38,884 nt of DNA from Chiloscyllium plagiosum (lineage: Eukaryota), in assembly GCF_004010195.1 (NCBI RefSeq), contig NW_025214078.1, positions 1 to 38,884 of the forward strand, in the 5' to 3' direction. Positions 23,001 to 38,510 of the stretch are shown piece after piece. How positions within the stretch are numbered: the first letter of the stretch is position 1; the number at the start of each line of letters is the position of its first letter. A program made the translations under genes and the position numbers. The notes beneath the pieces are model-generated. The model ran no database searches. It saw only the letters and a list, made by a program, of their open reading frames with translations, and was not told the DNA's origin.

Positions 23001-24826
23001 GACGTTGACGTTAGTATTGGTGACGGTGATGCCGTTGGCCTTGGTGCTGGTGTTGGTGTTGACGTTGACGTTAGTATTGGTGACGGTGATGCCGTTGGCC
23101 TTGGTGCTGGTGTTGGTGTTGACGTTGACGTTAGTATTGGTGACGGTGATGCCGTTGGCCTTGGTGCTGGTGTTGGTGTTGACGTTGACGTTAGTATTGG
23201 TGACGGTGATGCCGTTGGCCTTGGTGCTGGTGTTGGTGTTGACGTTGACGTTAGTATTGGTGACGGTGATGCCGTTGGCCTTGGTGCTGGTGTTGGTGTT
23301 GACGTTGACGTTAGTATTGGTGACGGTGATGCCGTTGGCCTTGGTGCTGGTGTTGGTGTTGACGTTGACGTTAGTATTGGTGACGGTGATGCCGTTGGCC
23401 TTGGTGCTGGTGTTGGTGTTGACGTTGACGTTAGTATTGGTGACGGTGATGCCGTTGGCCTTGGTGCTGGTGTTGGTGTTGACGTTGACGTTAGTATTGG
23501 TGACGGTGATGCCGTTGGCCTTGGTGCTGGTGTTGGTGTTGACGTTGACGTTAGTATTGGTGACGGTGATGCCGTTGGCCTTGGTGCTGGTGTTGGTGTT
23601 GACGTTGACGTTAGTATTGGTGACGGTGATGCCGTTGGCCTTGGTGCTGGTGTTGGTGTTGACGTTGACGTTAGTATTGGTGACGGTGATGCCGTTGGCC
23701 TTGGTGCTGGTGTTGGTGTTGACGTTGACGTTAGTATTGGTGACGGTGATGCCGTTGGCCTTGGTGCTGGTGTTGGTGTTGACGTTGACGTTAGTATTGG
23801 TGACGGTGATGCCGTTGGCCTTGGTGCTGGTGTTGGTGTTGACGTTGACGTTAGTATTGGTGACGGTGATGCCGTTGGCCTTGGTGCTGGTGTTGGTGTT
23901 GACGTTGACGTTAGTATTGGTGACGGTGATGCCGTTGGCCTTGGTGCTGGTGTTGGTGTTGACGTTGACGTTAGTATTGGTGACGGTGATGCCGTTGGCC
24001 TTGGTGCTGGTGTTGGAGTTGACGTTGACGTTAGTATTGGTGACGGTGATGCCGTTGGCCTTGTTGCTGGTGTTGGAGGTGATGATGACGTTAGTATTGG
24101 TGACGGTGATGTCGTTGGCCTTGGTGCTGGTGTTGGAGTTGACGTTAGTATTGGTGACGGTGATACCGTTGGCCTTGGTGCTGGTGTTGGAGTTGACGTT
24201 GACGTTAGTATTGGTGACGGTGATGCTGTTGGCCTTGTTGCTGGTGTTGGAGTTGACGTTGACGTTAGTATTGGTGACGGTGATGCCGTTGGCCTTGGTG
24301 CTGGTGTTGGAGTTGACGTTAGTATTGGTGACGGCGATGCTGTTGGCCTTGGCGCTGGTGTTGGAGTTGACTTTGACGTTAGTATTGGTGACGGTGATGC
24401 CGTTGGCCTTGGCGCTGGTGTTGATGTTGACGTTAGTATTGGTGATGGTGATGCCGTTGGCCTTGGCGATGGTGTTGGAGTTGACGTTAGTATTGGTGAC
24501 GGTGATGTCGTTGGCCTTGGCGATGGTGTTGGAGTTGACATTAGTATTGGTGACGGCGATGCCGTTGGCCTTGGTGCTGGTGTTGGAGTTGACGTTGACG
24601 TTAGTATTGGTGACGGCGATGCCGTTGGCCTTGGTGCTGGTGTTGGAGTTGACGTTGACGTTAGTATTGGTGACGGCGATGCCGTTGGCCTTGGTGCTGG
24701 TGTTGGAGATGACGTTGACGTTAGTATTGGTGACGGTGATGCCGTTGGCCTTGGCGATGGTGTTGACATTGACGTTAGTATTGGTGACGGTGATGCCGTT
24801 GACGTTGGCGATTGCGTTGGACTGCT
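1988..24826 (-). other. Open frame of mucin-like repeats (TSTSTPTPAPRPTASPSPIL)n, in frame with the upstream CDS after its TGA; coding status unresolved
   Basis: After TGA (24829-24827) the frame reads SSPTQSPTSTASPSPILTS for 19 codons into the listed 7593-aa ORF at 24769. It ends WNICV* inside the antisense CR1 remnant. No signal peptide or folded domain is visible. Confidence 0.3.
2007..24816. repeat. Giant 60-bp tandem array (~381 units), identical over 2007-24016 and diverged over 24017-24816
   Basis: Unit TTGGTGCTGGTGTTGGTGTTGACGTTGACGTTAGTATTGGTGACGGTGATGCCGTTGGCC. I see no variant until 24017, and three invariant frame translations agree. The last ~13 units carry substitutions, and six are shortened to 54 bp. 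Confidence 0.99.
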
Positions 24827-27800
24827 TCAGCGGACCGCTCGGCGGCCGGCCTGGACCAGGCGCCGTCCCAGCAGCCCCCGGGCCCGCTCCACCCCACCGC
24901 CAAAGTAGAGGGTGGCCCAGAACTCCTGGTCCTCCTCCGCCACCTCCATCATGGCGTTGTCGGTTACCACCACTGCCGGGGGTCGCCTCGGCTGCGGGTA
25001 CAGGATGCCGAAGAGCACGTGGTCGTAGTCGTCCGGGGGCACGGCTGGGGGCGGTGGTGGGGGCGCGGGGTCCGTCTCGGGGCAGGGGCAGGGCTCTGAG
25101 GGAGGGGGAGGGTGAGGGGGTGGGGGAGGGGGGGTTTCGGTGCCCGGCGGACCCTCGGACACCTCCCCCCGTGAGGAGGAGGCGGTGGTGAGGCTGGAGG
25201 GGCTGTCCCCGCTGGAGGTCAGGTGGGAGAACAGGGTGACGATGACCAAGGGGTCGCAGGCCTGGGCTGGGGCCTGGGTCTGGGTGGGCCGAGGGAGGCG
25301 GTGCCGCGGGGGGTGGGGCTGGGTGGCCGATGTGGGGGGCGGGGGGGGCCCGCCTCCCGGCCAGCTGTGCCCACTGGGGGCGCTCTCGGCGTCGGTGCTC
25401 TGGCCGGAGGAGGGAGCCTCGAAGTGGGGGTAGGGGGCGGGGCTGAGGCCCGACGACGGCCCCTCCCCCGGGTTGTCGGGCGTGGTCGCGCCCCTGCCCC
25501 CCAAGGTGGTCAGGGTGCCCGCGGTGGGGGTCAGCTCGGCCGGGGACATCCCCGCCAGGGTCAGCGTCTCGGGGGTGGGGCTGGCCTCGGCCCCGCCCCC
25601 CGCCGCGGCGAGGCGCGGGCCTTCCCTACCCGGCGTGCCCCCCTCGCTGGCGGGGGGCAGGCGGGCGGGCGAGGGGGCGGGTGGGGCTAGCCCCCACTCC
25701 AGCCGGGCGGTGCCCGCCTGCCCCTGGGACGAGGAGGAGGGCGAGGAGGTGGAGGAGGGCGACGAGGGGGAGGGGGGCGAGGAGGAGGACGAGGAGGAGG
25801 AGGAGGTCTCGCTCTGGCACGAGGCGCCGTCGCCTGCGGCCGGCGTCCGTCCGCCTGTCGTCTGGTCTGGTGTTCCGCCTGTAGCCGCTGACTGGTCTCG
25901 GGAGGATGTTTCGTCTGTAGCCGGTGGCCATTCTGACAGTGCTCCGCCTGTAGCCACTGCCTCATCGCAGGAGGATGTTTCGCCTGTAGCTGGTGGCTGT
26001 TCTGACAGTGCTCCGCCTGTAGCCGCTGCCTCATCGCAGGAGGATGTTTCGCCTGTAGCCGGGGGCCGTTCTGACAGTGCTCCGCCTGTAGCCGCTGCCT
26101 CATCGCAGGAGAATGTTTCACCTGTAGCCGGTGGCTGTTCTGACTGTGCTCCGCCTGTAGCCGCTGCCTCATCGCAGGAGGATGTTTCACCTGTAGGCAG
26201 TGGCTCTTCCGATGATGCTCCGCCTGTAGCCACGATTGCATCACACGAAGATATTTCACCTGTAGCAAATGGCTGTTCTGATGGCGTTCCACCTGTAGCC
26301 GCTGCCTCATCACAGGAAGATATTTCGCCTGTAGTCAGTGGCTCTTCTAATGGTGCTCCACCTGTAGCCACAATCTCATCACATGAAGATATTTCGCCTG
26401 TAGCGAGTGGCTCTTCCGATGGTGCTGCACCTGTAGCCACGATCTCATCACTGGAAGATATTTCACCTGTAGCTAGTGACTGTTGTGGCGGTATTCCGTC
26501 TGGAGCCGCGAACCCATCGCAGTATATTTTGCCTGTAGCCGTCAACTGTTCTGATGGTGTGCTGCCTGTAGCCGTGGCCTTATCACAGGAGGATGTTTCG
26601 CTTGTAGCCGGCGGCTGTTCTGACAGAGCTCTGCCTGTAGCCACTGCCTCATCGCAGGAGGATGTTTCGCTTGTAGCCGGCGGCTGTTCTGACAGTGCTC
26701 TGCCTGTAGCTGCTGCCTCATCGCAGGAAGATGTTTCGTCTGGAGCCAGTGGCTCTTCCGATGAAGCTCCGCCTATAGCCACGATCTCATCACCAGAAGA
26801 TATTTCACTTGTAGCCAGCGACTGTTCTGGCGGTATTCCACCCGGAGCCATGAACCCATCGCTGGAGGATATTCTGCCTGTAGCCATCAGCTGTTCTGAT
26901 GGTGTGCCGCCTGTAGCCGCGGCCTCGTCGCAGGAGGCTGTTTCGCTTGTACTCATCTGTTCTGGCGGCTGGGTTCTGCCTGTAGCTGTGATCTCTTCAC
27001 ATGGAGATGTTTTGCCTGTTGTCAGTGTCTGTTCTGACTGTGACATTCCACCTGTAGTCACTGTTAGGTCTGATGGTGATAGTCGGCCTGTGGTAGGGGT
27101 TTGTTCACATGGAGATATTTCTCCTGTAGGCAGGGTCCGTTCTGATGGTGACAATTCACCTGCCGTCCCTCTCTTTTCTAGTTCTGCCAGTCCGCCTACA
27201 GTCTGTGCCTGTTCTGATGGCAGCCTTCTGCCTGTCATTGAGGGCTGTTCACATGGAGACACTTCACCTGTAGTCAGTGTCTGTTCTGATGGCGTCAGTT
27301 CTCCTGTAGCCAGTGTCTGTTCTGGTGGTAATTTGTCACCTGTGGGCAGGTACTCTTCAACTGATGGCACTTTGCCTTCGCGTGGGCTCCATTCCGATGG
27401 TGATCTCTTGCCTGTAGTGAGCACGGGTTCCAGTAACAAGGAGTCACCCAAACACAGAGTCTCCTCTGTTTCACCTGTTGCCAGTGTCTCTGCCGGTGGC
27501 GATTGTCCACCTGTAGTCTTGGTCTGCCCGGGATCTGTGCGTTCACCTGTTTCTTCTGGCAGTGCTAGTTCACCCCTCAACTGAACCTGCTCTGCTGTTG
27601 TCATCGCGCCTGTAGGCACTGCCTGTCCTATTTCACCTGGACGCAGGGTGTTGTCCATTGGTGGACGCTTAGCTGGGGTCATGGCATCTTCTGATGGACA
27701 TGGTTTGCCTGTAGACTGTGCCTGATCTGGTGGTGTGACCTCACCTGAACACAGCTTCTGATTCAACGTTGATAGTTCACCTGTACCTGGCGCCTGTTCT

Positions 27801-30800
27801 TGAGCAGACAGCTCACCTGTTGGCACGGCAGCTTGGGTATGAATCAGCGTCTGTTCGGATAATGATATTTCCTCTGTCGTCAGCAACCGCTCCAGTGGTG
27901 ACAACTCGTCTGAGCACTCTGTTTGCACTGACGGTGATATTTCACCTGTAGCCAGCACTTGTTCTTGCGGAGAAAGTTCACCTGTAGCCATGGTTATTGC
28001 TGATGGCCGACTCTTTGCAATGATCTGTGTGTATTCTGGTGAAGATGTCGCACCTGTAGTTCGGGTCTGTTCTGCTGGCGATAGTCCGCCTGTCGTCGGT
28101 GCCTGCTCTGAGGGTAGCAGTTCGCCTGTAGTCAATGTCAGGTCCGGTGGAGTCATGACACCCACAACAAGTTTTTGTCCACTTGGTGATATTTTACCTG
28201 TCGCTCTCACCTGTTCTGATGGTGACACCTCGTCTGCTGCTAGTGGCTCTTCTGCAGGGGATATCTCACCTGTAGACAGTGTCTGTTCTGACTGTGATAT
28301 CTCGCTCGTAGACAGTGTCTGATCTGACGAAGATGCTTCACTTGTAGACAGCATCTGTTCTGATGGTGACTGTTTGTCTGTGGTTAAGGCTTGTACTTGT
28401 GGAGGGGGTGCACCCTTGATCGGTGCCTGGTCCAGCAACATTTCGCCTGTACTCCAGGTCTCTTCTGGTGGCGGAATTTCGCCTGTATTCAGCATCAGGT
28501 CTGTCAGCAATAGTTTACCAGTAGTTAGTGTCTGATCTGGCAAGGAAGGTTCACCTGTAGTCGCGGTCTCTTCTGGTGGCGAGATATCACCTGTAGCCAA
28601 TACCTGGTCTGGCAGGGAACGTTCACCTGTAGTCACGGTCTCTTCTGGTGGTGAGCTTTCGCCTGGAGCCAATACCTGGTCTGGCAGGGAACGTTCACCT
28701 GCAGTCACAGACTCTTCTAGTGGTGAGATTTCGCCTGTAGCCAATACCTGGTCTGGCAGGGAGAGTTCACCTGTAGTCACGGTCTCTTCTGGTGGTGAGA
28801 TATCGCCTGTAGCCAATACCTGGCCTGGCAGGGAACGTTCACCTGTAGTCACGGTCTCTTCTGACAGTGAGATTTCGCCTGTAGCCAATACCTGGCCTGG
28901 CAGGGAACGTTCACCTGTAGTCACGGTCTCTTCTGACGGTGAGATTTTGCCTGTAGCCAATACCTGGCCTGGCAGGGAACGTTCACCTGTAGTCACGGTC
29001 TCTTCTAGTGGTGAGATTTTGCCTGTAGCCAATACCTGGTCTGGCAGGGAGAGTTCACCTGTAGTCACGGTCTCTTCTGAGGGTGAGATTTTGCCTGTAG
29101 CCAATACCTGGCCTGGCAGGGAACGTTCACCTGTAGTCACAGTCTCTTCTGGCGGTGGGATTTTGCCTGTTGCCAATACCTGGCCTGGCAGGGAACGTTC
29201 ACCTGTAGTCACAGTCTCTTCTAGTGGTGAGAGTTCGCCTGTAGCCAATACCTCGTCTGGCAGGGAGAGTTCACCTGTAGTCACGGTCTCTTCTGGTGGT
29301 GAGATATCGCCTGTAGCCAATACCTGGCCTGGCAGGGAACGTTCACCTGTAGTCACGGTCTCTTCTGACAGTGAGATTTCGCCTGTAGACAATACCTGGC
29401 CTGGCAGGGAACGTTCACCTGTAGTCACGGTCTCTTCTGATGGTGAGATTTTGCCTGTAGCCAATACCTGGTCTGGCAGGGAACGTTCACCTGTAGTCAC
29501 AGTCTCTTCTGGTGGTGGGATTTTGCCTGTTGCCAATACCTGGCCTGGCAGGGAGAGTTCACCTGTAGTCACAGTCTCTTCTGACAGTGAGATTTCGCCT
29601 GTAGCCAATACCTGGTCTGGCAGGGAACGTTCACCTGTAGTCACAGTCTCTTCTGGTGGTGAGATTTCACCTGTAGCCAATACCTGGCCTGGCAGGGAGA
29701 GTTCACCTGTAGTCACAGTCTCTTCTGACAGTGAGATTTCGCCTGTAGCCAATACCTGGTCTGGCAGAGAACGTTCACCTGTAGCCACAGTCTCTTCTAG
29801 CGGTGAGATTTCACCTGTAGCCAATACCTGGTCTGGCAGGGAACGTTCACCTGTAGTCACAGTCTTTTCTGTCGGTGAGATTTCACCTGTAGCCAATACC
29901 TGGCCTGGCAGGGAGAGTTCACCTATAGTCACGGTCTCTTCTGTCGGTGAGATTTCACCTGTAGCCAATGCCTGGCGTGGCAGGGAAAGTTCACCTGAAG
30001 TCACAGTCTCTTCTGGTGGTGAGGTTTCACCTGTGGCAAATACCTGGCCTAGCAGGGAGAGTAGGCCTGTAGTCATGGGCTCTTCTGTCAGTGAGACATC
30101 ATCTGTAGCCAATTCCTGGTCTGGCAGGGAACGTTTACCTGTAGTCACAGTCTCTTCTGGTGGTGAGCTTTCGCCTGTAGCCAATACCTGGCCTGGCAGG
30201 GAGAGTTCACCTGTAGTCATGGGCTCTTCTGTCGGTGAGATCTCAGCTTTGGCCAATACCTGGTCTGGCAGGGAATGTACACCTGTAGTCACAGTCTCTT
30301 CTGATGGTGAGATTTCGCCTGTAGCCAATACCTGGCCTGGCAGGGAGAGTTCACCTATAGTCAAGGTCTCCTCTGACGGTGAGACTTTGCCTGTAGCCAA
30401 TACCTGGTCTGGCAGGGAGAGTTCAGCTGTAGTCACAGTCTCTTCTGTCGGTGAGATTTCGCCTGTAACCAATACCTGGCCTGGCAGGGAACGTTCACCT
30501 GTAGTCATGGGCTCTTCTGTCGGTGAGACTTTGCCTGTAGCCAATACCTGGTCTGGCAGGGAACGTTCACCTGTAGCCACAGTCTCTTCTGTCGGTGAGA
30601 TTTTGCCCATAGCCAATACCTGGCCTGGCAGGGAGAGTTCACCTATAGTCAAGGTCTCTTTTGTGAGTGAGCTTTCGCCTGTAGCCAATACCTGACCTGG
30701 CAGGGAATGTTCGCCTGTAGTCACGGTCTCTTCTGGTGGTGAGATTTTGCCTGTAGCCAATACCTGGCCTGACAGGGAACGTTCACCTGTAGTCACAGTC

Positions 30801-33800
30801 TCTTCTGACAGTGAGATTTCACCTGTAGCCAATAACTGGTCTGGCAGGGAACGTTCACCTGTAGTCACAGTCTTTTCTGTCGGTGAGATTTCACCTGTAA
30901 CCAATACCTGGTCTGGCAGGGAGAGTTCACCTGTAGCCACAGTCTCTTCTGTTAGTGAGACTTTGCCTGTAGCCAATACCTGGTCTGGCAGGGAGAGTTC
31001 ACCTGTAGTCACGGTCTCTTCTGGTGGTGAGGTTTTGCCTGTAGCCAATACCTGGTTTGACAGGGAACGTTCACCTGTAGTCACAGTCTTTTCTGTCGGT
31101 GAGATTTCACCTGGAGCCAATACCTGGTCTGGCAGGGAGAGTTCACCTATAGTCACGGTCTCTTCTGGAGGTGAGGTTTTGCCTGTAGCCAATACCTGGT
31201 TTGACAGGGAACGTTCACCTGTAGTCACAGTCTTTTCTGTCGGTGAGGTTTCACCTGTAACCAATACCTGGTCTGGCAGGAAGAGTTCACCTATAGTCAC
31301 GGTCTCTTCTGGAGGTGAGACTTTGCCTGTAGCCAATACCTGGTCTGGCAGGGAACGTTCACCTGTAGTCACGGTCTCTTCTGGAGGTGAGACTTTGCCT
31401 GTAGCCAATACCTGGCCTGGCAGGGAACGTTCACCTGTAGTCACAGTCTCTTCTGTCGGTGAACTTTCGCCTGTAGCCAATACCTGGCCTGGCAGGGATC
31501 GTTCACCTGTAGTCACGGTCTCTTCTGTCGGTGAGCTTTCGCCTGTAGCCAATACCTGGCTTGACAGGGAACGTTCACCTGTAGTCACAGTCTCTTCTGT
31601 CGGTGAGCTTTCACCTGTAGCCAATACCTGGCCTGACAGGGAACGTTCACCTGTAGTCATAGTCTCTTCTGTCGGTGAGCTTTCGCCTGTAGCCAATACC
31701 TGGCCTGACAGCGAACGTTCACTTGTAGTCACGGTATCTTCTGTCAGTGAGAATTCCCCTGTACCTGTTTTCTGGTCTGTCAGTAATAGTATCCCAATAG
31801 TTAAGATCTCTTCTGACAGTGAAAGCCCACCAGTCTCTGCTGGTGGGGGTAGTTCCCCTGGGGTTGGCTCCTGGTCCGACAGTAATACTTTGCCTGTGGT
31901 TTGCGCCTTTCCAAGTGGCGATGCCTCCCTTTCAGCCGGCCCCTGTCCCGGTGGTGACATCTCGCCCGGGGTCATGGTGGTTAGGATCTGTTCCAATGGT
32001 AATATGTCCCCTGTCGCTAATGTCACGCCTGAATCCAGGGCCTGGTCTGACGGCGGTGATTCGCCTGTGCTCTTGGTCTGCGGCGTCAGGGCTGGTTGGC
32101 CCGTCTGCTCACCGTCTGGAGACAGCTCGCCAATAGCCACCGTCCGTTGTGGCGTTTCGGGTGCGGCGAGGGGGTGCTCCAGGAGCGACTGTTCGTCCGG
32201 GGTCCGCTCCCACTGCGAGATGTCACCCGTCAACAGAACGTCCCGGGGCCTGAGCATCTCCACCCGGATGACTGTGATCACCGATGGCTCGTTTGCCGAC
32301 GGTCGGTCTGTCGCCAGGCTCGACTCGGACCACGTCGGGGACACACTCAGTTCGCCTGTCGACAGCGTTTGCTCTGGCCGGGACAGTCGACTAGTAGCAA
32401 GGGTCTGTTCCGACAGTCCGCCTGTGCTCGGCGTTTGCGCGGGTGGGGACGTCGCGCCCGCCCGCTCCTGTGGGAGGTGCCTGCCGGCAGCCGGTGCCTG
32501 TTCTGAAGGCGAGCGTTCGCCTGTGGTCAGGATATAGTCAGGCGGGGACAGTCTGCCTGTAGCCAGCAGCTGTTCCAGGGGAGAGAGCTGGCTTGAGGCC
32601 AGCGCCTGCTCCAGGAGGGTCAGGGTGCCGGCGGACACGTGGGGCCCCAGGGCCGTGGGTTTGCCTGTAGCCAGCACTTGCTCGGGCAGGGAGAGTCTGC
32701 CTGTCGCCCGCACCTCGTCTGCGGGGCGCAGGATGCCTCTCGCCAACACTGGCTCTGGCAGCGACAGCCTGCCCGTCGTCAGCACCTGTTGGGGGGGGGA
32801 CAGCTTGCCCATCGACAGCACCCACTCCGAGAGGGACAGTCCGCCTGTAGCCGGCACCTGTTCCGGCAGGGAGAGCTTGCCCATTGGGACCGACCACTCC
32901 GGGAGGGGCAGTCCGCCTGTAGCCGGCAAAGCCATTGGCGGAGGGGACATTCCACCTGTAGCCGGCGACTGTTCAGGGGGGGAGAGTTTGCCTGTAGGGA
33001 GCGCTGACTCCAGAAGGGGCAGTCCACCTGTAGCTGGCAACGCCACCGGCAGAGGGGACACTCCACCTGTAGCCGGCGCCTGTTCAGGCGGGGGGAGTTT
33101 GCCTGTAGGGAGCGCCCACTCCGAGAGGGGCAGTCCGCCTGTTGCCAGCAACGCCGTCGGCAGAGGGGACACTCCACCTGTAGCCGGCGCCTGTTCAGGC
33201 TGGGGGGGTTTGCCTGTAGGGAGCGCCCACTCCGGGAGGGGCAGTCCGCCTGTAGCCGGCGCCCGTTCCGGGGGCAGCAGGAGGAGGCGGTCGGAGGTGC
33301 GGGGACCCTCCAGGAGCAGGCCGGAGGAGGACCGCAGGGTAGCGGAGGACCCCGGGCCAGAGCCGGGGAACAGCATCGAGGCCAGGTCCCGGTCGGAGTC
33401 GGCAGGGGCCTCGGGGAGCAGGGCCCACTCGGACAGGCCTCCCCAGGAGGGGGTGGGCGGGCAGCTGCGGGGCGGGGGCGGGGGAGGGGGAGGGGGCTCG
33501 GGGGAGGAGCCGCTGCCGCCCCGCCCAGCGCCCGCCCCCTCCCAGCTCTCCGCCATCAGGACCCGGCCCCAGACGGAGCGGTCGTCCACCGAGGAGCCCG
33601 GGAGCACGCGGGCGGCCGACTTCTCGTCCCGGGTGTAGATGGTCAGGATCTCGCCCCAGGAGGCCGGGACGTCGAGGGGGGCTGGGGGCGGACCCCCCGC
33701 CCCCACCCAGGGCGGGGGGCTACCCGGCACCGCCCCCCGCTCCTCCTGGCCCTCCCCGTACATGCTCAGCACCTGCTCCCAGGCCGCCCGCTGGTCCTCG

Positions 33801-34153
33801 GGGGGCTGGGGGGAGGGGGGAGGGGTGGAGGTGGTCGGGCCCCCTCCCCCACCCTCCGCAGGGGGCGATGAAGGAGGAGGGGAGGGCGTCCGCTCCCCGG
33901 CCTGTTCCGGGGAGCCCGGTGCCGAGGGGTGGGGACTGGGGGTGGGCGTCGGCGTCCCCTGCCCTCCGGAGGCGTCCTTGTCCCCCGCCTCCTCCTCCTC
34001 CTCCTCCTCCTCTCCCCTCCCTCTTCCTCCAGCGGGGTAGGCCATTCGCGTCCTGATGTAGTAGTAACTCTCGACGAGGGAGTCCGTCCTGAGCGGGGCG
34101 CGGGCGTCTTCCGGGGCCGCCCCCTCTTCGCGTTTCGGGCGGTGGGTGGGGTC
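24827..34153 (-). CDS. Giant coding exon of an uncharacterised ~3100-aa Thr/Ser/Glu/Pro/Gly-rich repeat protein, predicted mostly disordered
   Basis: The 3072-aa ORF stays open across unique and diverged-repeat sequence. Its frame extends 36 codons upstream of the ATG at 34045 (DPTHRPKREEG...SYYYIRTR) to a phase-0 acceptor: TAACTCAC branch-like motif, polypyrimidine tract, then CCAG|GAC at 34154/34153. Confidence 0.82.
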   Translation of the reverse strand, partial: DPTHRPKREEGAAPEDARAPLRTDSLVESYYYIRTRMAYPAGGRGRGEEEEEEEEAGDKDASGGQGTPTPTPSPHPSAPGSPEQAGERTPSPPPSSPPAEGGGGGPTTSTPPPSPQPPEDQRAAWEQVLSMYGEGQEERGAVPGSPPPWVGAGGPPPAPLDVPASWGEILTIYTRDEKSAARVLPGSSVDDRSVWGRVLMAESWEGAGAGRGGSGSSPEPPPPPPPPPRSCPPTPSWGGLSEWALLPEAPADSDRDLASMLFPGSGPGSSATLRSSSGLLLEGPRTSDRLLLLPPERAPATGGLPLPEWALPTGKPPQPEQAPATGGVSPLPTALLATGGLPLSEWALPTGKLPPPEQAPATGGVSPLPVALPATGGLPLLESALPTGKLSPPEQSPATGGMSPPPMALPATGGLPLPEWSVPMGKLSLPEQVPATGGLSLSEWVLSMGKLSPPQQVLTTGRLSLPEPVLARGILRPADEVRATGRLSLPEQVLATGKPTALGPHVSAGTLTLLEQALASSQLSPLEQLLATGRLSPPDYILTTGERSPSEQAPAAGRHLPQERAGATSPPAQTPSTGGLSEQTLATSRLSRPEQTLSTGELSVSPTWSESSLATDRPSANEPSVITVIRVEMLRPRDVLLTGDISQWERTPDEQSLLEHPLAAPETPQRTVAIGELSPDGEQTGQPALTPQTKSTGESPPSDQALDSGVTLATGDILPLEQILTTMTPGEMSPPGQGPAEREASPLGKAQTTGKVLLSDQEPTPGELPPPAETGGLSLSEEILTIGILLLTDQKTGTGEFSLTEDTVTTSERSLSGQVLATGESSPTEETMTTGERSLSGQVLATGESSPTEETVTTGERSLSSQVLATGESSPTEETVTTGERSLPGQVLATGESSPTEETVTTGERSLPGQVLATGKVSPPEETVTTGERSLPDQVLATGKVSPPEETVTIGELFLPDQVLVTGETSPTEKTVTTGERSLSNQVLATGKTSPPEETVTIGELSLPDQVLAPGEISPTEKTVTTGERSLSNQVLATGKTSPPEETVTTGELSLPDQVLATGKVSLTEETVATGELSLPDQVLVTGEISPTEKTVTTGERSLPDQLLATGEISLSEETVTTGERSLSGQVLATGKISPPEETVTTGEHSLPGQVLATGESSLTKETLTIGELSLPGQVLAMGKISPTEETVATGERSLPDQVLATGKVSPTEEPMTTGERSLPGQVLVTGEISPTEETVTTAELSLPDQVLATGKVSPSEETLTIGELSLPGQVLATGEISPSEETVTTGVHSLPDQVLAKAEISPTEEPMTTGELSLPGQVLATGESSPPEETVTTGKRSLPDQELATDDVSLTEEPMTTGLLSLLGQVFATGETSPPEETVTSGELSLPRQALATGEISPTEETVTIGELSLPGQVLATGEISPTEKTVTTGERSLPDQVLATGEISPLEETVATGERSLPDQVLATGEISLSEETVTTGELSLPGQVLATGEISPPEETVTTGERSLPDQVLATGEISLSEETVTTGELSLPGQVLATGKIPPPEETVTTGERSLPDQVLATGKISPSEETVTTGERSLPGQVLSTGEISLSEETVTTGERSLPGQVLATGDISPPEETVTTGELSLPDEVLATGELSPLEETVTTGERSLPGQVLATGKIPPPEETVTTGERSLPGQVLATGKISPSEETVTTGELSLPDQVLATGKISPLEETVTTGERSLPGQVLATGKISPSEETVTTGERSLPGQVLATGEISLSEETVTTGERSLPGQVLATGDISPPEETVTTGELSLPDQVLATGEISPLEESVTAGERSLPDQVLAPGESSPPEETVTTGERSLPDQVLATGDISPPEETATTGEPSLPDQTLTTGKLLLTDLMLNTGEIPPPEETWSTGEMLLDQAPIKGAPPPQVQALTTDKQSPSEQMLSTSEASSSDQTLSTSEISQSEQTLSTGEISPAEEPLAADEVSPSEQVRATGKISPSGQKLVVGVMTPPDLTLTTGELLPSEQAPTTGGLSPAEQTRTTGATSSPEYTQIIAKSRPSAITMATGELSPQEQVLATGEISPSVQTECSDELSPLERLLTTEEISLSEQTLIHTQAAVPTGELSAQEQAPGTGELSTLNQKLCSGEVTPPDQAQSTGKPCPSEDAMTPAKRPPMDNTLRPGEIGQAVPTGAMTTAEQVQLRGELALPEETGERTDPGQTKTTGGQSPPAETLATGETEETLCLGDSLLLEPVLTTGKRSPSEWSPREGKVPSVEEYLPTGDKLPPEQTLATGELTPSEQTLTTGEVSPCEQPSMTGRRLPSEQAQTVGGLAELEKRGTAGELSPSERTLPTGEISPCEQTPTTGRLSPSDLTVTTGGMSQSEQTLTTGKTSPCEEITATGRTQPPEQMSTSETASCDEAAATGGTPSEQLMATGRISSSDGFMAPGGIPPEQSLATSEISSGDEIVAIGGASSEEPLAPDETSSCDEAAATGRALSEQPPATSETSSCDEAVATGRALSEQPPATSETSSCDKATATGSTPSEQLTATGKIYCDGFAAPDGIPPQQSLATGEISSSDEIVATGAAPSEEPLATGEISSCDEIVATGGAPLEEPLTTGEISSCDEAAATGGTPSEQPFATGEISSCDAIVATGGASSEEPLPTGETSSCDEAAATGGAQSEQPPATGETFSCDEAAATGGALSERPPATGETSSCDEAAATGGALSEQPPATGETSSCDEAVATGGALSEWPPATDETSSRDQSAATGGTPDQTTGGRTPAAGDGASCQSETSSSSSSSSSPPSPSSPSSTSSPSSSSQGQAGTARLEWGLAPPAPSPARLPPASEGGTPGREGPRLAAAGGGAEASPTPETLTLAGMSPAELTPTAGTLTTLGGRGATTPDNPGEGPSSGLSPAPYPHFEAPSSGQSTDAESAPSGHSWPGGGPPPPPTSATQPHPPRHRLPRPTQTQAPAQACDPLVIVTLFSHLTSSGDSPSSLTTASSSRGEVSEGPPGTETPPPPPPHPPPPSEPCPCPETDPAPPPPPPAVPPDDYDHVLFGILYPQPRRPPAVVVTDNAMMEVAEEDQEFWATLYFGGGVERARGLLGRRLVQAGRRAVR
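25870..26960 (-). repeat. Coding repeat block of ~69 bp / 23 aa (TGETSSCDEAAA-TGGALSEQPPA), about 15 copies, containing Cys
   Basis: Visible in the translation and as CCTGTAG anchors alternating about 33 and 36 bp apart. Confidence 0.88.
28550..31745 (-). repeat. Coding repeat block of 72 bp / 24 aa (TGERSLPGQVLA-TGEISPPEETVT), about 44 copies
   Basis: Two alternating 36-bp monomers (CCTGTAGCCAATACC... and CCTGTAGTCACGGTC...) with many substitutions but no frameshift or stop on the minus strand. Confidence 0.95.
32830..33265 (-). repeat. Coding repeat block of 111 bp / 37 aa (TGGLPLPEWALP-TGKPPQPEQAPA-TGGVSPLPTALLA), about 3.5 copies
   Basis: The AGTCC(G/A)CCTGT anchor recurs at 33243, 33132, 33021 and 32910, a 111-bp spacing. 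Confidence 0.88.
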
Positions 34154-34231
34154 CTGGCGTTGAGGGAGGGGGGAGGTGGAGAGACGGGAGGGTGAGTTAT
34201 TACGCCCGTCTGCCTTCCTTTACACCCCCAC

Positions 34232-34332
34232 CCGACCTCCCGCCCCGGCTCCCTCTCCATCCCTTTCCCCCCGGCGTTTCCGCTCGGCGGCCAGCCACTT
34301 GGAAATAGCGATCACAACGTCGGACGCGCAGA
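34232..34332 (-). CDS. Possible 101-nt internal exon (xCASDVVIAISKWLAAERKRRGERDGEGAGAGGR)
   Basis: Acceptor CTCCCCTCTCTCCAG|TC with an upstream TACTCAC motif, and a weak donor CGG|GTGGGG. Phase 1 in and phase 0 out fits both flanking exons and leaves a 78-nt intron. Confidence 0.4.
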
Positions 34333-34420
34333 CTGGAGAGAGGGGAGTCCCGCAACTAGACCAGGTGAGTAGGTGGCGGGAGTGGGGGGGAGGAATGCTG
34401 GTGTGGGGGAGGGGAGGGGG

Positions 34421-37400
34421 TTGTCCCGTAGTGCCCTGGGATGTGCAGGTTAGGGTGGATTGGCCTTGGGGAAATTGTCCCGTAGTGCCCAGGGATGTGT
34501 GGGTTAGGGTGGGTTGGCCGTGGGAAATTGTCCCGTAGTGCCCAGGGATGTGCGGGTTAGGGTGGGTTGGCCGTGGGAAATTGTCCCGTAGTGCCCAGGG
34601 ATGTGCAGGTTAGGGTGGTTTCGCCATGGGAAATTGTCCCGTAGTGCCCGGGGTTATGCAGGTTAGGGTGGTTGCCCGTGGGGAAATTGTCCCGTAGTGC
34701 CCAGGTATGTAGAGGTTAGGGGGGATTGGCCGTGGGGAAATTGTCCCGTAGTGCCCAGGGATGTGCAGGTTCGGGTGGATGGCCGTGAGGAAATTGTCCC
34801 GTAGTGCCCAGGGATGTACAGGTTAGGGTGGATTGGTCGTGGGGAAATTGTCCCATAGTGCCCAGGGATGTTCGGGTTAGGGTGGATTGGCCGTGGGAAA
34901 TAGTCCCGTAGTGCCTAGGGACGGGCACGTTAGGGTGGATGGGCCATGGGTAACTGTCCCGTAGTGCCAGGGACGTGCAGGTTAGGGTGGGTTGGCCATG
35001 GGAAATTGTCCCGTAGTGCCCAGGGATGTGCAGGTTAGGGTGGGTTGGCCGTGGGAAATAGTCCCGTAGTGCCTAGGGACGGGCACGTTAGGGTGGATGG
35101 GCCATGGGTAACTGTCCCGTAGTGCCAGGGATGTGCAGGTTAGGGTGGATGGGCCATGGGTAACTGTCCCGTAGTGCCCAGGGATGTGCAGGTTAGGGTG
35201 GGTTGGCCATGGGAAATTGTCCCGTAGTGCCCAGGGATGTGCAGGTTTGGGTGGGTTGGCAATGGGGAAATTGTCCCGTAGTGCCCAGGGATGTGCAGGT
35301 CAGGGTGGATGGGCCATGGGGAATTGTCCCGTAGTGCCCAGGGATGTGCAGGTTAGGGTGGATTAGTGTTGGGAAATTGTCCCGTAGTGCCCAGGGATTA
35401 CAGGTTTTGTGGATTGGCCCTGGGAAATTGTCCCGTAGTGCCCAGGGATGTGCAGGTTAGGATGGGTTGTCCGTGGGAAATTGTCCCGTAGTGCCCAGGG
35501 CATCCATGGGCAGGTTAGGGTGGGATGGCCGTGGGAAATTGTCCCTGTAGTGCACAGGGATGTGCAGGTTAGGGTGGGTTGGCCGTGGGAAATTGTCCTG
35601 TAGTGCCCAGGGATGTGCAGGTTAGGTTGGATTGGCCATGGGAAATTGTCCCGTAGTGCCCAGGGATGTGGAGGTTAGGGTGGATTCGCTGTGGGAAATT
35701 GTCCCGCAGTGCCCAGGGATGTGCAGGTCAGGCTGGATTAGCCGTGGGAAATTGTCCCGTAGTGCCCAGGGATGTGCAGGTTAGGGTGGATTAGCCGTGG
35801 GAAATTGTCCTGTAGTGCCCAGGGATGTGCAGGTTAGGGTGGATTGGCCATGGGGAAATTGTCCTGTAGTGCCCAGTGATGTGCAGGTTAGGGTGGATTG
35901 GCCGTGGGAAATTGTCCCGTGGTGCCCAGGGGTGTGAGGGTTAGGGTGGATTTGCCACGAGAAATTGTCCCTTTGTGGGTTGGCTGTGGTGAAATCGTCC
36001 CATAGTGCCCAGGGATGTGCGTGTTAGGAATCGGCCATGGGAAATTGTCCCGTAGTGTCCAATGATGTGCAGGTTAGGGTGGGTTGGCCGTGGGGGAATT
36101 GGCCCGTAGTGCCCAGGGATGTACAGGTTAGGGTGGGTTGTCCGTTGGAAATTGTCCCGTTGTGCCTAGGGATGTGCGGGTTAGGGTGGATTTGCCACGA
36201 GAAATTGTCCCTTTGTCCCTTTGTGCCCAGGGATGTGCAGGTTCGGGTGGGTTGGCCGTGGGGACAGTGTCCCGTAGTGCCCAGGGATGTGCAGGTTAGG
36301 GTGGATTGGCCGTGGGAAAATTGTCCCGTAGTGCCCAGGGATGTACAGGTTAGGGTGGATTGTCCATTGGATATTGTCTCGTTGTGCCCAGGGATGTGCG
36401 GGTTAGGGTGGATCGGCCGTGGGGAAATTGTCCCATATTGCCCAGGGATGTGCGGGTTAGGGTGGATCGGCCGTGGGAAATTGTCCCCTAGTGCCCAGGG
36501 ATGTACAGGTTAGGGTGGGTTGCCCATTGGAAATTGTCCCGTTGTGCCCAGGGATATGCGGGTTAGGGTGGATTTGCCACGAGAAATTGTCCCTTAGTGC
36601 CCTGGGATGTGCAGGTTAGCGTGGGATTGGCCGTAGGGAAATTGTCCCATAGTGCCCAGGGATGTACAGGTTAGGGTGGGTTGGTCGTGGGAAATTGTCC
36701 CGTAGTGCCCAGGGATGTGCCGGTTAGCGTGGGATTGGCCGTGGGATATTGTCCCCTAGTGCCCAGGGATGTGCAGATTAGGGTGGGATTGGCCGTGGGG
36801 AAATTGTCCCGTAGTGCCCAGGGATGTGCAGGTTAGGGTGGATTGGCCGTGTGGAAATTGTCCCGTGGTGCCCAGGGGTGTGCAGGTCAGGGTGGGTTGG
36901 CTGTGGTGAAATTGTCCTGTAGTGCCCAGGGATGTGCGTGTTAGGGATCGGCCATGGGAAATAGTCCCGNNNNNNNNNNNNNNNNNNNNNNNNNNNNNNN
37001 NNNNNNNNNNNNNNNNNNNNNNNNNNNNNNNNNNNNNNNNNNNNNNNNNNNNNNNNNNNNNNNNNNNNNNNNNNNNNNNNNNGTCCCGTAGTGCCCAGGG
37101 ATGTACAGGTTAGCGTCGGATTGGCCGTGGGGAAATTGTCCCATAGTGCCCAGGGATGTGCGGGTTAGGGTGGATTGGTCTTGGGGATAGTGTCCCATAG
37201 TGTCCAGGGATGTGCAGGTTAGGGTGGATTGGCCGTGGGAAATTGTCCCGTAGGACTCAGGGATGAGCAGGTTAGGGTGGATTGGCCGTGGGAAATTATC
37301 CCGCAGTGCCCAGGGTTGTGTGGGTTAGGGTGGATTGGCCGTGGGGAAATTGTCCCATAGTGCCCAGGGATGTACAGTTTAGGGTGGGTTGGCCGTGGGA

Positions 37401-37510
37401 AATTGTCCCGTATTGCCCTGGGATGTGCAGGTTAGGGTGGATTGACCGTGGGGAAATTGTCCTGTCGTGTCCAGGGATGTGCAAGTTAGGGTGGATTGGC
37501 TTTGGGAAAT
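34421..37510 (+). repeat. 53-bp minisatellite (~58 units) derived from the central part of an HE1-like SINE
   Basis: Unit GGGAAATTGTCCCGTAGTGCCCAGGGATGTGCAGGTTAGGGTGGATTGGCCGT, moderately diverged. It resembles the GATGTGCAGGTTAGG-TGGATTGGCCATG-TAAATTG segment of shark SINEs (origin recalled, not searched). Confidence 0.9.
36970..37082. other. Assembly gap (113 N)
   Basis: Run of N inside the 53-bp minisatellite. Confidence 0.99.
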
Positions 37511-37749: not shown

Positions 37750-38510
37750 TTTAAACCAGGCTGGTGGCTACGGAGTGACAGTTAACTGCCAAGTGTCATG
37801 CAAACGTAAACCAGGCTGGTCGTAATGGAGTGACAGTTAACCGATGAGGATTGTTAAAGTTTAAACCAGATGAGTGGCAATTGAGTGAGTTTACTGCTGA
37901 GTTTTGCAAAACGTTAAACTGGGCTGGTAGAGATTGAGCGACAGTCAACGGCTGAGTTTTGCAAAACTTTAAACTGGGCTGGTAGAGGTTGAACGACAGT
38001 TAACTGCTGAGTTTTGTAACCCTTTAAACTGGGCTGGTAGAGATTGAGTGACAGTTAACTGCTGAGTTTTGTAACCCTTTAAACCGGGCTGGTGGAGATT
38101 GAGTGACAGTTAACTGCTGAGTTTTGTAACCCTGTAAACTGGGCTGGTGGAGATTGAGTGACAGTTAACTGCTGAGATTTGTTTAAATTTAAACCGAGCT
38201 AGTGTGGAAACCAATTGACAGTTAACTGCCGAGCTTAGCGTAAATGTAAACCAGGGTGGTTGGGGACCGATTGACAGTTAACTGCTAGGGCATTGTTTAA
38301 ATTTGAACCACACAATTCGAGACTAGTTGCAAGGGAGGGAAAATGACGAGTACCTGTGCAGAGAGAAAGTGAGGAGGCGTGGTGCAGAAGGAGAGAGCAA
38401 CTGCTGAGTTTTTGTTAATTTTTAAACTCGGTCGGTGGAGATTGACAGTTAACTGCCAGATTTGTGTAAATTTAAATTGGGCTGGTGGAGATTGAGCGAC
38501 AGTTAACTGC
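37750..38510. repeat. 55-bp tandem repeat (~12-13 units, interrupted near 38300-38395) containing the palindrome CAGTTAACTG
   Basis: The GGGCTGGT anchor recurs at 37921, 37976, 38031, 38086 and 38141. Unit is approximately TTTAAACTGGGCTGGTAGAGATTGAGTGACAGTTAACTGCTGAGTTTTGTAACCC. Confidence 0.92.

Follow-up and report, generated by a model that had tools for sequence, protein, structure and literature searches.

An in-frame TGA ahead of a long minisatellite frame is probably the ordinary stop codon of a cartilaginous-fish repeat-protein gene

A stretch of 38,884 nucleotides from the shark Chiloscyllium plagiosum (RefSeq assembly GCF_004010195.1, contig NW_025214078.1, positions 1 to 38,884; hereafter the window, meaning the whole stretch analysed) carries, on its minus strand, a very long open frame, a single TGA, and then an even longer Pro/Thr/Ser-rich (PTS) frame through a tandem array. 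We conclude, with a probability of roughly 0.8, that translation of an uncharacterised repeat-protein gene of cartilaginous fish normally ends at this TGA, with a minisatellite lying directly 3' of the codon. Ribosomes would be released at the TGA, the array would be non-coding 3' sequence, probably a 3' untranslated region (UTR), and the PTS frame after the stop is probably not translated. The split protein of 10,700 residues implied by the original prediction for this DNA is most likely not real.

The basic description given in that prediction was accurate. The minus strand reads GTC CGC TGA AGC AGT CCA ACG CAA TCG with the TGA at 24829-24827, exactly as reported, and the claimed succession of a ~3100-aa frame, a TGA, and a ~7600-aa PTS frame corresponds to 3130 and 7612 codons. 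The upstream frame runs from stop to stop over 34219-24830; its first Met is residue 59 (position 34045), giving a protein of at least 3072 aa. The same frame continues downstream over 24826-1988 and begins with SSPTQSPTSTASPSPILTS. Removal of the TGA would yield a joint frame of ~10,700 codons, in agreement with the predicted arithmetic. A second minus-strand frame (25625-1947) overlaps the last 266 codons of the gene. For comparison, we used four of 24 listed sequencing runs over 24700-25720: a run from the same species (X1), runs from two related sharks (organisms B and C), and an RNA run (X21), the contigs compared being of DNA or of unrecorded type. All changes reported below are drawn from the best 40 of 131 rows of the resulting table of differences. 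The features around the stop are as follows.

24830 to 34219, minus strand: open frame of 3130 codons for an acidic, low-complexity, T/P/S/E/G-rich repeat protein; first ATG at 34045, possible exons further 5'
24827 to 24829, minus strand: TGA, most likely an ordinary stop, in the context UGA-AGC
24809 to 24826, minus strand: spacer of 18 nt from stop to array; of its first six bases, 3 are changed in organism C and 2 in organism B
1988 to 24826, minus strand: PTS frame past the stop, 7612 codons as a frame translation, probably untranslated
1947 to 25625, minus strand: another open frame across the array, of 7892 codons and rich in Thr/Asn/Val, with no selection where the gene overlaps it (3 silent, 16 non-silent codons)
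24848 to 25078, minus strand: conserved C-terminal motif, residues 3048-3124, common to skate and sawfish proteins (hidden Markov model independent E-value, i-E, 4.4e-10), with purifying selection among sharks

The comparison with related sharks indicates that the protein-coding constraint extends up to the TGA. Organism C differs from the window by ~9% over the last 82 codons, and of the 23 changes listed for 24830-25074, 15 affect the third base of a main-frame codon (p=0.0017). Among the changed codons in the last 82, 15 of 22 are silent, against an expectation of 27-34% (p ~0.002), while the same comparison in the second long minus frame gave 3 silent codons out of 19, with 16 non-silent. 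These patterns point to purifying selection on the last 82 codons in the main frame, up to the stop. Further upstream (25100-25700, 14 listed rows), the main frame showed 7 silent and 7 non-silent codons, and all four contigs from relatives keep the frame, with net indels of +9, +15, 0, and -30. The sequence immediately past the stop is variable: three of the first six bases differ in organism C, two of these also in organism B, the first two codons both change non-silently, and the stop context is AGC in the window and GGC in organism C. The RNA run contributed 0 reads over 24700-25720 from ~2% of the run, too small a sample to bear on expression.

The TGA itself appears to be kept in organism C. 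Contig 13 from this organism spans 24769-25129 with 0 gaps, and its listed changes close to the stop are at 24821, 24823, 24826, 24839, and 24845; no sense codon at 24827-24829, nor any other change there, is listed among the best 40 of 131 rows. Since rows backed only by a contig of depth 22.5 do appear, a change in the organism C contig, of depth 27, would be expected to appear too. The original prediction had proposed looking for a TGA shared across species and for a shift of the downstream frame in orthologues; the former seems to hold for organism C, whereas no shift was seen there over 58 bases.

Homologous proteins in batoids end at about the same place. A search with the last 146 residues against 1.84 billion representative sequences returned 2 matches, one of them a skate protein whose cluster has 5 members, from Leucoraja and Amblyraja plus two Logan records; a profile search with the motif added one sawfish protein. 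In the reverse direction, a profile built on three batoid proteins matched residues 3048-3124 of the window protein (i-E 4.4e-10), with nothing else significant in the six frames of the window. The proteins sharing this C-terminal motif of ~75 residues are XP_055512122.1 and XP_055512121.1 (Leucoraja erinacea), XP_032901285.1 (Amblyraja radiata), and XP_051897650.1 (Pristis pectinata). Six of six batoid records, from three species, terminate 22 residues past the word FGGGVE, and the window protein terminates 19 past it, which supports the TGA as an ordinary stop; counted from the motif, the batoid proteins are only 3 residues longer, and no homologous protein was found to continue well past the stop. 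Like the window protein, the batoid proteins have a low-complexity body and no Pfam family, as far as the skate and window proteins scanned are concerned, and their database names (collagen-like, NDC80 homolog) are unsupported by any Pfam match. They differ in length, with 564-634 aa against at least 3072 aa, and neither the long repeat body nor the N-terminus aligns. We suggest from these alignments that the motif defines an unnamed protein family of cartilaginous fish, found in skates, sawfish, and this shark.

Other searches for relatives gave nothing further. In two word-index searches, of 1576 and 3641 candidates, no sequence reached E<=0.01, Atlas searches gave no usable match, and an exact look-up of the window protein with three alternative starts found it absent from the sequence collection searched. 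A dinoflagellate repeat protein (P0001, E 1.2e-5 summed over 5 stretches) and P0010 (E 4.8) were dropped as chance matches, and 2 matches in a PDB sequence search (E 0.16 and 0.75) were rejected. In the literature collection searched, we found no paper naming three accessions or two spellings of the motif.

The continuation of the open frame behind the TGA is explained by the composition of the array. This 60-bp tandem array lies at 2007-24808 in ~380 copies, and 366 of the 380 counted units are identical. The unit is open in two of three minus frames and two of three plus frames, and four frames of 7600-7900 codons, two on each strand, cross the array. Because the downstream frame is one unit repeated, its freedom from stops is essentially a single event; among 20,000 shuffled units, a given frame was open in 60%. 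With two of three minus frames open, the odds of an in-frame continuation are about 2 in 3, so that the match of the TGA with the PTS frame is no more than chance. Chance had been one of the options in the original prediction, where odds of 1 in 3 were given; the option stands and the odds do not. C and A are abundant on the minus strand of the array, where C recurs every third base; this composition gives one Pro/Thr/Ser/Ala frame and leaves most frames stop-free: in the PTS frame, C occupies the second position in 17 of 20 codons, accounting for the PTS reading, and A or G the third position in 20 of 20. The unit has a sub-period of 6 nt (67% identity at lag 6) and is built from ten 6-nt subunits. 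A comparison of the array units for silent bias, in which 6 of 16 changes were silent where 33% would be expected, was discarded; it is without power, since the coding 72-nt repeat of the gene itself fails it too (18 of 64, 28% expected). In its general form the array resembles known minisatellites, or variable-number tandem repeats, with head-to-tail units of 54-60 bp, variants at one end, and a copy number that is hard to assemble. By title and the start of the abstract, the literature on UTR minisatellites with open frames held nothing on this locus. The array has two parts.

2007 to 24016, no strand assigned: 366.8 perfect copies of the 60-nt unit over 22,010 bases, with no mismatch and an abrupt end; length probably inflated or homogenised by assembly
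24017 to 24808, no strand assigned: diverged start of the array, next to the gene, where 14 variant units were counted, each 54 or 60 nt long, with 16 distinct substitutions and 6-nt indels; the repeat also lies beside the stop in organisms B and C

The length of the PTS frame is itself doubtful; the original prediction passed over the perfect identity of 22 kb of the array and its possible origin in assembly. The reads of X1 do not look like 366 identical units. Unit variants in this run contain the words TCGA and CGAG, which are missing from the array of the window, and its listed contig depths of 23-183 sum to ~1200 at 24700-24734. Assuming a single-copy depth near 25, this corresponds to ~50 copies rather than 380, and assuming a depth near 4, to many multi-copy variants. 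Of X1, 84% was read, and the run may come from another individual; the variants absent from the window could reflect another individual, another locus, or loss during assembly. Summed depth, which is not a copy number, was 9-54 versus 5-6 in organism B and up to 560 versus 22-27 in organism C, suggesting short arrays in both. Gap closers are reported to mis-size tandem repeats, e.g. GapCloser produced 7.9 copies for 2.9 (PMC10265787); the 367 perfect copies here go far past that example. The window also holds a gap of 113 N, a sign that the assembly was scaffolded. Taken as they stand, these data make it fairly probable that the 366 perfect copies represent expansion or homogenisation, by the assembly, of a shorter and more varied array. 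By title and the start of the abstract, the literature on shark assemblies and gap closing contained nothing on this locus. At the far end of the array (~650-2006), no diverged units were seen at the junction, which could be a misjoin; the sequence there may derive from decayed long interspersed elements, which it resembles.

Several observations weigh against reading the TGA as an ordinary stop and the array as untranslated. The retention of the TGA depends on the ranking of the rows and covers organism C only; for organism B, a contig spans the site and its private changes fall outside the listed rows, and the same-species run X1 has no contig over the stop. The homology to batoid proteins is limited to the C-terminal ~77 residues, making these proteins relatives by motif and candidate orthologues only, and their ends are those of database gene models. 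Past the stop, the PTS frame is unshifted in organism C over the 58 covered bases, and in three species (the window, organism B, and organism C) the stop still has the repeat next to it. Within the array, every unit indel seen is of 6 nt and none of the 16 unit substitutions creates a stop in the PTS frame, an outcome with a chance expectation of 48%. Finally, the minus strand below the stop contains no AATAAA, with ATTAAA at 1693 as the sole near match, and the summed depths behind the inferred shortness of the arrays carry the caveat given above.

Among the alternatives, functional readthrough would have a fraction of ribosomes decode the UGA, e.g. as Trp, adding a long Pro/Thr/Ser tail. The portion of PMC4132726 available describes verified vertebrate cases with the motif UGA-CUAG (OPRK1, OPRL1, AQP4, and MAPK10), with stops conserved across species and bases 3' of the stop invariant in orthologues. 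The present site is like this class in having a UGA stop, apparently common to species as readthrough stops are, with an open frame behind it that is unshifted over 58 bases in organism C and an array present in three species. It differs in its context, UGA-AGC here and UGA-GGC in the relative: the CUA(G) motif was not found directly 3' of the stop here or in organism C, and the six bases past the stop vary between species, unlike the known cases, in which they are the most conserved. Moreover, what follows the stop is a tandem repeat, for which no tail of a homologous protein provides a counterpart. Folding of 150 nt beginning at the stop, in a model without pseudoknots, gave -19.4 kcal/mol (z=+0.56), a value equalled or bettered by 140 of 200 shuffles, and thus no stable stem-loop. 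Rfam gave 0 matches at gathering score in the whole window, a selenocysteine insertion sequence (SECIS) included, no dedicated SECIS finder having been run. The view in the original prediction that a UGA-A context argues against programmed readthrough is therefore upheld, with AGC or GGC as the context and neither CUAG, SECIS, nor stem-loop. The available portion of PMC8136774 has 0 occurrences of UGA-A or UGA-G, and the literature on readthrough in cartilaginous fish held nothing on this locus by title and the start of the abstract. One alignment result speaks for decoding as Trp: reading the stop as W aligns R-W-S-S-P with R-W-G-S-P of the skate and raises the alignment score by 9-12, while reading it as X adds nothing. 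The batoid proteins themselves, however, terminate 4 residues past this position and thus offer no homologous tail, and we regard functional readthrough as very unlikely. The same alignment offers a tentative hint that the stop derives from an old TGG (Trp) codon, at a cost of ~4 residues; the hint is weak because the gain depends on choosing W. That sharks decode such an old Trp codon to this day at a useful rate, or splice around it, with the minisatellite serving as a regulated Pro/Thr/Ser tail of great length on an intracellular repeat protein, seems to us very unlikely.

A further alternative places the array in the coding region of another isoform, through splicing that skips the stop or through use of the second, Thr/Asn/Val-rich frame. 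Two minus frames do cross the entire array without a stop, one of them overlapping the last 266 codons of the gene, and the unit indels are multiples of 3; but no selection is seen on the second frame where it overlaps the gene (3 silent codons against 16 non-silent), no pyrimidine tract was seen by eye before the array, and slippage in a sequence with a 6-nt sub-period explains the 6-nt indels. This alternative is thus highly improbable. The original prediction had also considered a CGA>TGA nonsense allele, which if recent would have truncated, in this individual or species, a mucin-like protein of 10,700 aa, and a base-call error in the assembly at 24829. The position of the stop in frame with a long PTS frame, the CpG-rich DNA (CpG observed/expected 0.70 just upstream), and the lack of a same-species contig over the site would suit the allele, and an adjoining array that appears affected by assembly, with X1 again lacking a contig over the site, would suit the error. 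Neither was supported, since these three bases appear to be unchanged in organism C, a separate and diverged species, and the batoid proteins end there. As for the allele, Arg at the stop adds only 0, 0, and 3 to the three alignments, and in the frame as read neither a signal or membrane stretch nor a mucin domain was found. According to the portion of PMC5100048 available, a stop confined to close relatives indicates a recent nonsense mutation and a sense codon in a relative is a sign of sequencing error; as far as these comparisons go, neither pattern is seen here. We therefore consider the nonsense allele remote, and the base-call error barely credible.

Mucins of the MUC2/MUC5AC type combine PTS tandem repeats with a signal peptide or membrane anchor and with VWD, SEA, CysD, or cystine-knot domains. 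The window shares with their PTS domains a tandem repeat with one Pro/Thr/Ser-rich frame, as a translation of the frame only, and differs in that this frame lies behind a stop, with no VWD, SEA, CysD, or cystine-knot match above the Pfam cut-off. A hydropathy scan of the 3130-codon frame found no signal peptide, membrane stretch, or other hydrophobic stretch (best 19-residue hydropathy 1.28), although first exons may lie further 5', and no Pfam family scored above its cut-off in this frame. Such a frame fits a mucin poorly, unless upstream exons supply a signal peptide. By its composition, the protein is most likely intracellular, a disordered acidic spacer of variable length that ends in a short helical motif for interaction. 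For the last 83 residues, the AlphaFold prediction, with three helices, is weak (predicted local distance difference test 64.7, predicted template modelling score 0.30). Pfam matches to ChlI, Attacin_N, DUF2807, Phage_Gp84, and FAM186A_PQQAQ were all under their cut-offs and were rejected, and two further Pfam scans, of 6 and of 4 proteins, gave 0 families.

The gene body on the minus strand (25869-33272) contains several coding repeat blocks, of 111, 72, 36, and 69 nt, with a common base period of 36 nt. All of these blocks are diverged, in contrast with the perfect 60-nt array. The 72-nt block is the following.

28537 to 31763, minus strand: coding repeat of 72 nt (24 aa) in the gene, ~44 diverged units with a mean of 92% to consensus, open in a single minus frame only

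Within the body, residues 646-660 (32282-32246 region, minus strand) include the hydrophobic word VITVIRVE, which by eye looks like a stretch kept in batoids and to which the profile search gave no score. At its 5' end, the gene appears to be spliced, as judged by eye: an exon-like piece at 38686-38590 (minus strand) has an acceptor, a GTGAGT donor, and one open frame, and an acceptor at 34333 (minus strand) runs in phase into the main frame; another site resembling an acceptor lies near 34155. The in-frame TAA at 34222-34220 (minus strand) could be removed by a short intron, or it terminates an upstream open reading frame. No Pfam match was found in the putative 5' exon pieces. An overlapping frame of 181 codons (33766-34311, minus strand), likely a chance product of GC-rich DNA and without a Pfam match, holds the word KRGRPRK, which we take to be AT-hook-like. 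On the plus strand at ~34365, in the CpG-rich 5' region, a perfect CAG/GTGAGT donor could belong to a divergent gene or be merely the reverse of a branch site on the minus strand. Further upstream of the gene lie a 53-bp satellite containing the 113-base N gap (34421-37510), whose unit presumably derives from a shark short interspersed element, and a repeat of 55-57 bp (37750-38285).

In summary, this locus provides a caution: a stop-free unit, once it stands in hundreds of copies that may be the work of the assembler, creates a '7600-aa' frame without evidence of translation, and gene callers or readers could take such an array frame for a mucin or a broken giant gene. If readthrough were true after all, the locus would matter much more, as readthrough without CUAG, or any known motif, into a giant tandem-repeat extension far longer than the 13 residues added to MAPK10 (PMC4132726, in the portion available). 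A modestly useful by-product is the unnamed protein family to which the gene would belong, of ~600 aa in skates and sawfish and more than 3000 aa in this shark, where it would have grown by expansion of coding repeats.

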